From an uncultured delta proteobacterium (GTDB lineage: Bacteria > Desulfobacterota > Binatia > UBA9968), in the NCBI GenBank assembly GCA_963727625.1, contig CAVSHR010000005.1, positions 1 to 64,000 on the forward strand: a stretch of 64,000 nt of DNA. Reading direction: 5' to 3'. Within the stretch, counting starts at the first letter, position 1; each line of letters begins with the position of its first letter. Of the stretch, positions 48,544-50,561 are shown one piece after another. A program made the position numbers and the translations under genes. The notes under the pieces were generated by a model. It searched no databases and was not told where the DNA came from. It saw nothing but the letters and a program-made list of their open reading frames with translations.

Positions 48544-49545
48544 TTATCCCAACCGCGCAATCAAACCGAGCAGATCGCAAACCCGGTTGGAGTAACCCCA
48601 TTCGTTGTCGTACCAGCTAAGACACTTGAGATACTTGCCGCCGGTAACGCTGGTGAATGCGGGGTCGAAAATCGATGAATGGGAGTTGCCTATAACATCC
48701 GATGACACCACCGGCGATTCCATCATCTGCAAGATGCCCTTCATCCGATTGGATTGCGCTGCGGATTGGATCGCCCCATGAACCTCCTCGACGCTCACCC
48801 CTTTGCCGAGTTCGGCAAACAAATCGACCACGGAGCCGTCCGGCACCGGGACGCGGGCGGCAATGCCGTCCAGCCGCCCTTTGAGCTCCGGCAAGACCTC
48901 GCCCACCGCCTTGGCCGCCCCCGTGGAGGTCGGGATGATATTCCTCGCCGCGGCCCGGCTGCGCCGCCAATCCGAGTGCGGCACGTCGGCAAGGCGCTGG
49001 TCATTGGTGTAGGCGTGCACGGTATTGATGACCCCTTCGACGATGCCGAAAGAATCGTGCAACACCTTCGCCAGCGGTGCCAGGCAATTGGTCGTGCAGC
49101 TCGCGTTTGAAATTATGCGGTGCTCCGGCTTGAGCCCGTCCTCGTTGACACCGATGACGACCGTATAATCGATCCGGTCCTTCGCCGGAACGGTCAAGAT
49201 TACGCGCTTGGCGCCGGCCTCCAGATGTTTAGCGAGCTGTTCCTTGCTGGTGAATATTCCCGTCGATTCGATGACCGCGTCGATGCCCAGTTCGCGCCAG
49301 GGCAGCTTGGTCGGATCCTTTTCGCGAAGCATGCGGGTTCGGCCGTGCGCCGTCACCAGCTCATCGCCTTCGAGACGCAGGGTCCCCTCGAAGCGTCCCA
49401 TCACGGTGTCATATCTGAGCAAGTACCGCAGCGCGTCATGGTCGAAGACGTCGTTGATCGCGACCAGCTCGGCGTCGGTGCGCTTATCCAGAATGCGAAA
49501 AACCGAACGGCCGATTCTGCCAAATCCATTAATGGCTACTCTCAT
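48544..49545 (-). CDS. gap: Type I glyceraldehyde-3-phosphate dehydrogenase
   Basis: GFGRIGR, SNASCTTNCLAP, HAYT, PTSTGAA, RVP and WYDNEWGY motifs all intact. Confidence 0.95.
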   Translation of the reverse strand: MRVAINGFGRIGRSVFRILDKRTDAELVAINDVFDHDALRYLLRYDTVMGRFEGTLRLEGDELVTAHGRTRMLREKDPTKLPWRELGIDAVIESTGIFTSKEQLAKHLEAGAKRVILTVPAKDRIDYTVVIGVNEDGLKPEHRIISNASCTTNCLAPLAKVLHDSFGIVEGVINTVHAYTNDQRLADVPHSDWRRSRAAARNIIPTSTGAAKAVGEVLPELKGRLDGIAARVPVPDGSVVDLFAELGKGVSVEEVHGAIQSAAQSNRMKGILQMMESPVVSSDVIGNSHSSIFDPAFTSVTGGKYLKCLSWYDNEWGYSNRVCDLLGLIARLG

Positions 49546-50561
49546 TTCCCACCTCCGCTAGCGTCAAGCCCGCTATATTGACGGACGACTTCGAGCACGC
49601 GGCATGCATGACCCAGGCTCTCGTACCAGGCCAGCGCTTTGACGATTCTTTTTCCGGCCTTCAGGGTCGCGCGGGAATCGAACAGCAGGGACTGCCGGCA
49701 GCCGATGACATCCGAGGACACGATCGGATCGTCGGTCACGCCGATCAACGCCGGGTGGGCGGCCGCGGCCGCGCGCATCGCCTCGTTCACTTGCTCGACG
49801 GCAACCTTATCGTCCCGCATCACGCAGTTCACATCCAGCATCGACCCCTGCTGCACCGGCACGTTCAGGGCGTATCCGCTCAGTTTTCCGGCAAACTTCG
49901 GCAACACAAGCTCGACCCACCGAGCCGACTCGTTATTATTCGGAATGATATTTTCCGCCGCGGACCGGCTGCGGCGGAAATCCTCGTGAGCATAGTCCTG
50001 CAGCGACTGATCGCTCGAATAGGCATGGACCGTGGTCATCGTCGCGCAGTCGACTTCCAAGGCCTGATCCAGTGATTGCAATAAGAGCGCAAACGCATTG
50101 GTCGTTGCCGAACCCGCCGAAACCATTCTGTCTGCGCTCCTGGCATCGGCTTCATTGATCCCCGGTATGACGATCCGGTCGATCGGCTCCGCCGGCAAAG
50201 ACGCGAGAATCACCCGCTTGGCGCCGGCGCGCAAATGCGCCTCCATGTCCCGGCGGCGCCGATATCGGCCCGTGGCATCGACGACGCAGTCGACGTTCAG
50301 AACGTCCCAGGGAACCTCGTCCGGCCGGGCAAGCTGGAGCATTCGGATGCGGAACTTCTCGTTGACCAGGTAGTTGTCCTGAAGCTCGCAGGGCGGCTCC
50401 TCGACTCCGTCGCTTGTGAGCAGATATTCGAGGATTTCCGGTTTACCGATGTCGGCCACGGCGACGATTTCGACGTCGTCTCGTTCGAGCGCAAGATGAT
50501 AGAGGTGCCGACCGATCTGGCCCAGACCCATAATGCCGATGCGGATTTTCCCGTTACCCAT
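49542..50561 (-). CDS. GAPDH-like protein lacking the catalytic cysteine (pseudoenzyme)
   Basis: Full-length GAPDH fold, but SAGSATTN replaces SNASCTTN. ATGA overlap with gap; GAGGGAGG RBS. Confidence 0.88.
   Translation of the reverse strand: MGNGKIRIGIMGLGQIGRHLYHLALERDDVEIVAVADIGKPEILEYLLTSDGVEEPPCELQDNYLVNEKFRIRMLQLARPDEVPWDVLNVDCVVDATGRYRRRRDMEAHLRAGAKRVILASLPAEPIDRIVIPGINEADARSADRMVSAGSATTNAFALLLQSLDQALEVDCATMTTVHAYSSDQSLQDYAHEDFRRSRSAAENIIPNNNESARWVELVLPKFAGKLSGYALNVPVQQGSMLDVNCVMRDDKVAVEQVNEAMRAAAAAHPALIGVTDDPIVSSDVIGCRQSLLFDSRATLKAGKRIVKALAWYESLGHACRVLEVVRQYSGLDASGGGK

Follow-up and report, generated by a model that had tools for sequence, protein, structure and literature searches.

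The window considered here is a 64,000-nucleotide stretch of the genome of an uncultured delta proteobacterium assigned to the Binatia (NCBI GenBank assembly GCA_963727625.1, contig CAVSHR010000005.1, positions 1 to 64,000). Its minus strand carries two adjacent open reading frames (ORFs), P0001 followed by P0002, both of which encode glyceraldehyde-3-phosphate dehydrogenase (GAPDH, gene gap) homologues (Table 1). The downstream protein has every canonical feature of the enzyme, whereas the upstream one lacks the catalytic cysteine, and the two are proposed to be the catalytic and non-catalytic subunits of one mixed enzyme. Plus-strand letters 49542-49545 read tcat, which gives ATGA on the minus strand, such that the P0002 start codon (ATG) shares letters with the P0001 stop (TGA). 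This overlap had been reported in the initial annotation and is borne out by the letters, as are the intactness of the upstream copy, a 339-residue frame, and its ribosome-binding site (GGGAGG, 7 nucleotides before the ATG). The GGAGG that precedes P0002 sits within codons for the C-terminal tail of P0001 (..SGGGK).

Table 1. Features of the gap pair and its 5' flank, in window coordinates
Feature	Position	Strand	Basis
P0001, upstream gene: Cys-less GAPDH paralogue, proposed non-catalytic subunit, 339 residues	49542..50561	-	ORF and translation, Pfam domains, TIGR01534 score, fold
P0002, downstream gene: canonical type I GAPDH, catalytic partner, 333 residues	48544..49545	-	ORF and translation, TIGR01534, active-site residues
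ATGA stop/start overlap (translational coupling)	49542..49545	-	Read from the letters
Shine-Dalgarno-like GGGAGG, 7 nucleotides before P0001 ATG	50569..50574	-	Consensus match only
Shine-Dalgarno-like GGAGG, 6 nucleotides before P0002 ATG	49552..49556	-	Consensus match only
Intergenic region 5' of the pair, shared with a divergent ABC ATPase gene	50562..51103	-	ABC ATPase ORF starts at 51104

Both proteins contain the Pfam domains Gp_dh_N and Gp_dh_C, and they share 38% identity over 327 residues (E 8e-72). All motifs of P0002 are canonical (GFGRIGR, SNASCTTN, NIIPTSTGAA, ARVPV, WYDNEWGYS), and it scores 420.2 bits against TIGR01534, the type I GAPDH equivalog with a cut-off of 367.2 bits, in agreement with its earlier description as a fully canonical copy. 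P0001 falls below that cut-off, at 256.4 bits. Its motifs are GLGQIGR, SAGSATTN, TTVHAYS, HEDFRRSRSAAENIIPNNNESA, NIIPNNNESA, YALNVPV and WYESLGHA, which place Ala at the position of the catalytic Cys149, Asn233 at that of Arg231 and NNNESA at the phosphate site; His176 is kept within TTVHAYS, and the S-loop, HEDFRRSRSAAE, is kept as well. (Cys149, His176, Thr208, Gly209, Arg231 and Asn313 follow what we take to be the conventional Geobacillus numbering.) Thus the substitutions listed in the initial annotation (SAGSATTN, PNNNESA, NVP and WYES) are all present in P0001, together with the elements that it had described as retained, namely the Rossmann loop GLGQIGR, His176 and the S-loop. Lacking the thiol nucleophile (Cys149 to Ala), the Pi-site (inorganic phosphate) loop Thr208-Gly209 and Arg231, the upstream protein could carry out no GAPDH chemistry. 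Neither protein belongs to the other GAPDH-like classes that were scored: against the Epd models (cut-offs 539 and 530.55) P0001 reaches 198.9 and 191 bits and P0002 333.7 and 332.2, and against the model of ArsJ-type GAPDH (cut-off 450) they reach 188.2 and 331.4, all below. The C-terminal tail of P0001 (..RQYSGLDASGGGK) and the C-terminus of P0002 are both without a CP12-like extension or a regulatory Cys pair.

P0001 has the GAPDH fold. Its AlphaFold model has a predicted local distance difference test (pLDDT) value of 87.6 and a predicted template modelling (pTM) score of 0.88, the S-loop (182-205) being the exception with pLDDT below 50, and the Foldseek matches are all GAPDHs, with TM scores of 0.85-0.88 to solved structures. 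The best sequence match in the PDB is 1HDG, at 217 bits. No solved structure of the Cys-less clade was found there: among the 140 matches at E<=1e-20, the 60 listed, like the Foldseek matches, are canonical GAPDHs or engineered mutants.

The arrangement recurs widely. Eighty loci at 45-86% identity came from a scan of one genome per species, with an alignment of Cys-less members as the query, and at least nine phyla appear in their record titles; taxa are those of the titles as deposited, and labels of metagenome-assembled genomes (MAGs) may be wrong. Pseudomonadota account for 32/80 loci (Halieaceae, Cellvibrionales and Pseudomonadales, including the cultured Parahaliea aestuarii S2-26), Bacteroidota for 19, Fidelibacterota/Marinimicrobia for 11, Thermodesulfobacteriota and Binatota for 2 each, and Myxococcota, Bacillota, Lentisphaerota and Latescibacterota for 1 each; 10 have no rank, one Acidoferrum MAG among them. 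In 77/80 loci the gene directly downstream, on the same strand, is a canonical GAPDH, and in the remaining three (L062, L066 and L107) the contig ends there. Measured from stop to start, the spacing of the 77 pairs is -4 in 50 cases and -1 in 19, and ranges from -10 to +12 in the other 8, such that stop and start overlap by 4 or 1 nucleotides in 69/77. When the 1592 neighbouring ORFs of the 80 loci were clustered, no neighbouring family occurred in more than 14 loci, and neighbours were lineage-specific; the two genes therefore form a self-contained module. The initial annotation had asked for SATTN-type homologues adjacent to an active gap, and that pairing is found in 77/77 assessable loci and in 18/19 relatives within the genus.

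A search for longer proteins, which returned four, found no genuine fusion of the Cys-less copy with its partner. P0272 (677 residues, one contig) joins an upstream-type unit to a canonical one and was rejected as a fusion, since its Arg-rich linker looks out of frame and it is probably a frameshift artefact. P0124 (2089 residues) and P0148 (1455 residues) were rejected because all of their GAPDH units bear the Cys; they consist of four and two tandem Cys-bearing units, respectively, and are unrelated to the pair.

Residue counts over these loci separate the two halves (Table 2). Every canonical active-site residue is present in 77/77 partners, Asn313 excepted, for which there is one gap. Several positions are at least 90% conserved in both halves and yet differ between them (upstream copy/partner): Asn208/Thr206, Asn233/Arg231 and Ser200/Ala198, and further Asp144/His142, Trp215/Ala213 and Ser183/Asn181. 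Conversely, Arg10, Thr208-Gly209-Ala210 and Asp313-Asn314 are invariant in the partners and free in the upstream copies, in which Arg10 is represented by Q, E, R or L and Asn313 by N, S, T or A, and the Pi loop occurs in 44 sequence types among 80 proteins. The GxG, Asp32 and Thr97 of the dinucleotide fold are kept. Arg10 and Asn313 are presumably NAD (nicotinamide adenine dinucleotide) contacts, and the Cys-less copy may have lost the Pi site and the nicotinamide end of the dinucleotide site but kept its adenosine end. The S-loop is the most conserved stretch of the upstream protein, with RRSRS..NIIPN invariant; top conservation combined with low pLDDT would fit a loop that is ordered in the oligomer only.

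Table 2. Residues at selected positions in upstream copies (n = 80) and partners (n = 77)
Position	Upstream copies	Partners
Cys149	A 57, S 21, P 2 (Cys 0/80)	C 77
Arg231	N 80	R 77
Thr206	N 80	T 77
Gly209	G 0/80	G 77
His176, Ser148, Asp181, S-loop Arg	kept 80	kept 77
Asp32	D 77	D 77
Asn313	N 32, S 21, T 21, A 4, G 1, gap 1	N 76, gap 1

These patterns bear on the principal alternative to a shared enzyme, which is that the upstream protein forms a separate homo-oligomer with a new ligand-binding or catalytic function on a triose-phosphate-related metabolite, uses His176, Ser148, Arg195, Asn208 and Asn233 for the purpose, and is co-expressed with an active GAPDH as a member of the same pathway. 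Such a protein, which we hold to be unlikely, would account for the invariance of the replacements (Asn208 and Asn233 in 80/80, Asp144 and Ser200 in 100%, Trp215 in 91%), for the retention of His176, Ser148, Thr/Ser179, Asp181 and the S-loop Arg in 80/80, for that of GxG, Asp32 (77/80) and Thr97, and for deep relatives that keep Cys149 and Arg231 (the upstream copy of L115, below). It accords poorly with a nucleophile position that may be Ala, Ser or Pro, with a freely varying Pi loop, with the lack of constraint on the presumed NAD contacts Arg10 and Asn313, and with the neighbour clustering, in which no third gene is conserved with the pair. Nor was the Cys-less copy ever seen, contig ends aside, without the partner directly downstream, be it in the genus, in the 80 loci or in the deep metagenome loci described below.

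Within the genus, an orthologue of P0001 occurs in 19 of 24 other genomes at 75-89% identity, one of the 19 (G005) being an unpublished genome. The partner lies directly downstream at the same locus in 18 of them; in the nineteenth (G015) a contig boundary follows the first gene, and another contig opens with a partner-type fragment. Medians of the ratio of nonsynonymous to synonymous substitution rates (dN/dS, Nei-Gojobori) are 0.096 among 18 sequences of the Cys-less copy (153 pairs) and 0.061 among 19 of the partner (171 pairs). The low dN/dS that the initial annotation had called for is thus found, at about 0.10 and purifying. In a large protein collection at least 120 clusters matched, and among the best 120 (82-100% identity) the active-site motif is SAGSATTN in 119 and SVGSATTN in one, while the regular expression xALNVPV matched 118 of the same 120.

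On these sequence data the upstream gene is not a decaying duplicate. Its recent inactivation, on the way to loss, would explain the missing Cys and the state of G018, wherein the Cys-less copy (L022, C18:25878-26835) lies in two frames, with residues 1-49 in one and 47-319 in the other, beside an intact partner of 92% identity; that split is possibly a real loss or possibly a sequencing error. Decay is contradicted by the dN/dS value, by an intact frame with the same substitutions in 80 loci from at least nine phyla, and by more than 120 metagenome clusters at 82-97% identity, and it was rejected, as exceedingly improbable, on the strength of the purifying ratio and the fixed substitutions.

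The five genomes of the genus that are without the Cys-less copy yielded either matches of 160-173 bits only (four genomes), which is the score level of housekeeping gap genes, or no match (G007). None gives a partner-level match, so the Cys-less copy and its partner are present or absent together. G007, which is 98% complete, has no match whatever to P0001, housekeeping type I gap included.

A FastTree phylogeny of 129 representatives unites the proteins whose active sites are non-canonical in a single clade with 18 members (Shimodaira-Hasegawa (SH)-like support 99), and the partner falls in a separate clade, apart from the housekeeping gap of this genome. A 'quick' IQ-TREE tree of 82 rows places all 31 upstream copies on one side of a branch (SH approximate likelihood ratio test, SH-aLRT, 99), which may reflect a single origin; 24 main-clade partners also form a clade (98), and the subclades of the two halves mirror each other. 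The pairwise identity matrices of the halves are correlated (Mantel r = 0.90, reached by 0/999 permutations). Together, mirrored subclades and correlation imply that the pair has travelled as a unit. The Binatia-type pair, that of the window included, nests within gammaproteobacterial pairs in both halves of the tree, and the pair was found in 0/16 genomes searched from the other families of the order, which suggests, from tree nesting and distribution, that the whole two-gene module was acquired by lateral transfer.

A metagenome scan with deep Cys-less relatives reached further back. Its pattern is a generic GAPDH pattern, hence 69 of its 80 loci are ordinary single gap genes and 11 are informative. 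In 11/11 of these two-homologue loci the non-canonical copy lies upstream of the canonical one. Some of the deep upstream copies (L115, L116, L117 and L122) keep Cys149, and L115 also keeps Arg231, while L115, L117 and L122, which sit upstream of a canonical copy, are without the TSTGAA loop. The loss of active-site residues has therefore been graded, with the subclade of the window at its fully disabled end.

Whether the two chains bind was addressed by modelling. A heterodimer model gives an ipSAE interface score of 0.71 (runs 0.69, 0.74 and 0.71), with 0.00 for the best of three controls; the mark applied to this score is reached by 58/80 solved complexes and 2/110 mismatched pairs. At least 99% of contacts are common to the runs, and the pLDDT of the partner is at least 91. 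The modelled contacts are symmetric and involve the catalytic-domain sheet and the end of the S-loop, a surface that we take to be the large P-axis interface of GAPDH. The pass may only mirror likeness to solved GAPDH homotetramers. What the model indicates is that the Cys-less copy keeps a GAPDH-like interface; it says nothing of a preference for the partner over itself. Of the 44 modelled interface positions, 20 are at least 95% conserved in the Cys-less clade, versus 47 of the 295 elsewhere (Fisher p 2.6e-5). On the partner side, four of eight clade-specific residues lie in the S-loop (186, 188, 193 and 201), and one of these, Glu201, is common to the Cys-less copy (Glu203) and rare in ordinary GAPDHs.

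A conserved interface could also serve a looser association, in which the upstream protein acts as a regulator or assembly factor that binds active GAPDH transiently, inhibiting or protecting it as CP12 does with chloroplast GAPDH, or has a moonlighting role. We judge this improbable. The conservation of interface and S-loop is in keeping with it, as are the pass of the complex model, possibly through likeness to solved homotetramers, and the accessory position of the pair beside a housekeeping gap in this genus. The stop/start overlap in 69/77 pairs points instead to fixed co-production, and in 5/6 Marinimicrobia genomes searched the partner is the only GAPDH found, so that there the pair must bear the main flux.

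Lineage-specific neighbours bear on the metabolic setting of the pair. In Halieaceae/Cellvibrionales, the gene for 2-keto-3-deoxy-6-phosphogluconate (KDPG) aldolase (eda) lies at most 55 nucleotides upstream on the same strand in 9 loci, and the pair is directly followed by that for phosphoenolpyruvate (PEP) carboxylase (ppc) in 10 loci and preceded by it in 3. The eda-gap-gap-ppc cluster is an Entner-Doudoroff and anaplerotic setting of the pair. Loci L044-L068 illustrate the order of genes, for example L068:7214-12692 of Parahaliea aestuarii S2-26, where a single strand carries the gene for KDPG aldolase, the Cys-less gap, its canonical partner and the gene for PEP carboxylase. A sugar regulator of the TrmB type accompanies the pair in Marinimicrobia and relatives (upstream in 7 loci, downstream in 1, L101), and in 5/6 Marinimicrobia genomes searched (G044 and G047-G050) the pair provides the only PF02800 match above the cut-off; the completeness of these genomes is not known, and GapN and GAPOR routes lie outside such a search. 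Searches of whole genomes with PF02800 showed additional gap copies for one genome each of the Cellvibrionales, Parahaliea and Bacteroidales and for a Binatia-like one.

By its gene neighbourhoods, then, the pair belongs to central carbon metabolism. The initial annotation had suggested that it was perhaps not glycolytic, a suggestion at odds with the eda and ppc neighbours and with the sole PF02800 match in most of the Marinimicrobia genomes searched. Its observation that pgk, tpi and arsJ are missing nearby does hold, none being present among the 10 neighbouring ORFs scanned (41.9-57.1 kb). The pgk and tpi genes of this genome are on another contig, and its third gap, the housekeeping copy, lies directly 3' of the phosphofructokinase gene; since that copy is not adjacent to pgk or tpi either, their absence near the pair says little. 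In this genome the module is an accessory second GAPDH beside the pfk-linked housekeeping gap, and elsewhere it appears to be the main GAPDH.

The upstream gene is conserved, its loss of chemistry is fixed, its coupling to an active gap is strict, and the two are co-inherited in a central-metabolic context. Of the inference drawn in the initial annotation, a conserved non-catalytic subunit, the part that stands is a selected Cys-less protein co-produced with active GAPDH (pairing 77/77, dN/dS 0.10); its A2B2 tetramer and nucleotide sensing are putative. We favour as probable, with considerable reservation, the reading that the pair is an obligate mixed-subunit GAPDH, made of one catalytic and one non-catalytic subunit in fixed ratio. 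In this scheme, wherein the heteromer itself, its stoichiometry and any regulatory role are what we infer, the downstream gene would supply a normal phosphorylating GAPDH subunit and the upstream gene a paralogue with GAPDH fold, dimer interface and S-loop. The overlapping stop and start codons would deliver both chains together, and these would join through the canonical interface between catalytic domains to give a heterotetramer, only half of whose sites would be catalytic. The disabled subunit would lend its S-loop and interface to the active one, and its remodelled pocket, in which the new and invariant Asn208 and Asn233 adjoin the retained His, Ser and Arg, would perhaps bind an effector.

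Several observations weigh against the mixed-subunit reading. G007 and G008, which are 98-99% complete, are without the pair, which is therefore dispensable in the genus. Any two genes that share an operon would be expected to show co-inheritance and mirrored trees. The complex model cannot separate a heteromer from two homotetramers, as any GAPDH paralogues would probably dock in this way, and the interface residues are conserved in ordinary GAPDH too because the active site is nearby. A 'dead subunit' does not fit the whole upstream family, whose deep members have Cys149. Finally, the invariant Asn208 and Asn233, Trp215 (91%) and Asp144 point to a gained pocket function, which would suit ligand binding or catalysis no less than a structural role, as far as residue patterns can tell.

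A more specific version of the mixed-subunit reading is that the disabled subunit makes a normally unregulated GAPDH regulated or retuned, which seems to us conceivable and on the whole doubtful. The pocket (His179, Ser151, Arg199, Asn208, Asn233 and Trp215) would bind a phosphorylated metabolite or nucleotide, and the altered S-loop would set the cofactor preference of the partner, or decide which way flux runs where Entner-Doudoroff/glycolysis and gluconeogenesis part. The GAPDH S-loop reaches into the NAD site of the neighbouring subunit, and that of the Cys-less copy is altered in being without the Pro188-type residue. If this holds, many Marinimicrobia, Bacteroidales and Halieaceae would run the central triose step via a fixed half-of-the-sites allosteric heterotetramer.

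To our knowledge, the bacterial GAPDHs described so far are homotetramers of one active subunit. With the type I homotetramer (GapA, EC 1.2.1.12, TIGR01534; PDB 1HDG and 1GD1) the pair shares domains and fold, and P0002 has every feature tested; P0001 differs in being without Cys149, Thr208-Gly209 and Arg231 and in scoring below the TIGR01534 cut-off, although it keeps the general base His176 and the S-loop arginines. Other bacterial paralogues, such as B. subtilis GapA/GapB, E. coli Epd and the ArsJ-associated GAPDH, resemble the present case in that a genome has several GAPDH-family genes. They keep the catalytic Cys and act as separate enzymes, and P0001 is far under the cut-offs of the Epd and ArsJ types, with no arsJ among the 10 neighbouring ORFs scanned.

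Further parallels come from eukaryotes. Plant GapB carries a Cys-bearing CP12-like C-terminal extension; none is present here, the P0001 tail (..GLDASGGGK) being without Cys. Two reports (PMC11025378, PMC3134340) describe chloroplast GapA/GapB as two paralogous GAPDH subunits in one A2B2 tetramer. The arrangement proposed here, from genes and the heterodimer model, is alike in joining two paralogous GAPDH subunits in one tetramer; in the plant enzyme both subunits are catalytic, whereas the upstream subunit here is without Cys149 and Arg231. Prozymes, pseudoenzyme partners exemplified by that of S-adenosylmethionine decarboxylase (AdoMetDC), offer a second comparison. Another of this type is the ENZ-PRO heterotetramer of Trypanosoma brucei PRMT1, as described in a preprint (bioRxiv 10.1101/776112). 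The likeness lies in a disabled paralogue under purifying selection that is made with an active one, with the heterotetramer here a proposal. Prozyme systems are eukaryotic, have unlinked genes and belong to other enzyme families, in contrast to a translationally coupled bacterial operon for a core glycolytic enzyme.

A full-text literature search found no description of a natural Cys-less bacterial GAPDH partner, and passages of a 2025 review of the GAPDH-like superfamily (PMC12041015) contain no mention of such a pair. The evidence suggests that GAPDH has an undescribed non-catalytic partner subunit. GAPDH is among the best-studied enzymes and is treated in bacteria as a homotetramer of identical active subunits, while the coupled disabled paralogue is found in Halieaceae, Bacteroidales, Marinimicrobia, Binatia and other lineages, in some beside the only GAPDH found. 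If the mixed enzyme exists, a large group of environmental bacteria would use a different quaternary form of GAPDH. It would provide a clean bacterial case of a pseudoenzyme subunit evolving by graded active-site loss, given the deep relatives that keep the Cys, and a natural test of half-of-the-sites behaviour in GAPDH. Databases name these proteins ordinary GAPDH, and gap copy numbers in metabolic reconstructions are consequently overstated.

Around the pair, a promoter and terminator scan found no sigma-70-like site on the minus strand 5' of P0001 (the plus strand has 2 sites versus 1.1 expected) and no terminator 3' of the pair. Divergent from the pair, positions 51104-53140 (+) hold one 678-residue ORF for a fused double ATPase of the DppD/DppF type, in which ABC_tran domains and oligo_HPY regions each occur twice. 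The ABC transporter cluster that adjoins the pair also includes an SBP_bac_5 solute-binding gene, which lies in two overlapping frames (53465..54589 and 54525..55196; minus strand) and is split by a frameshift or an assembly error.

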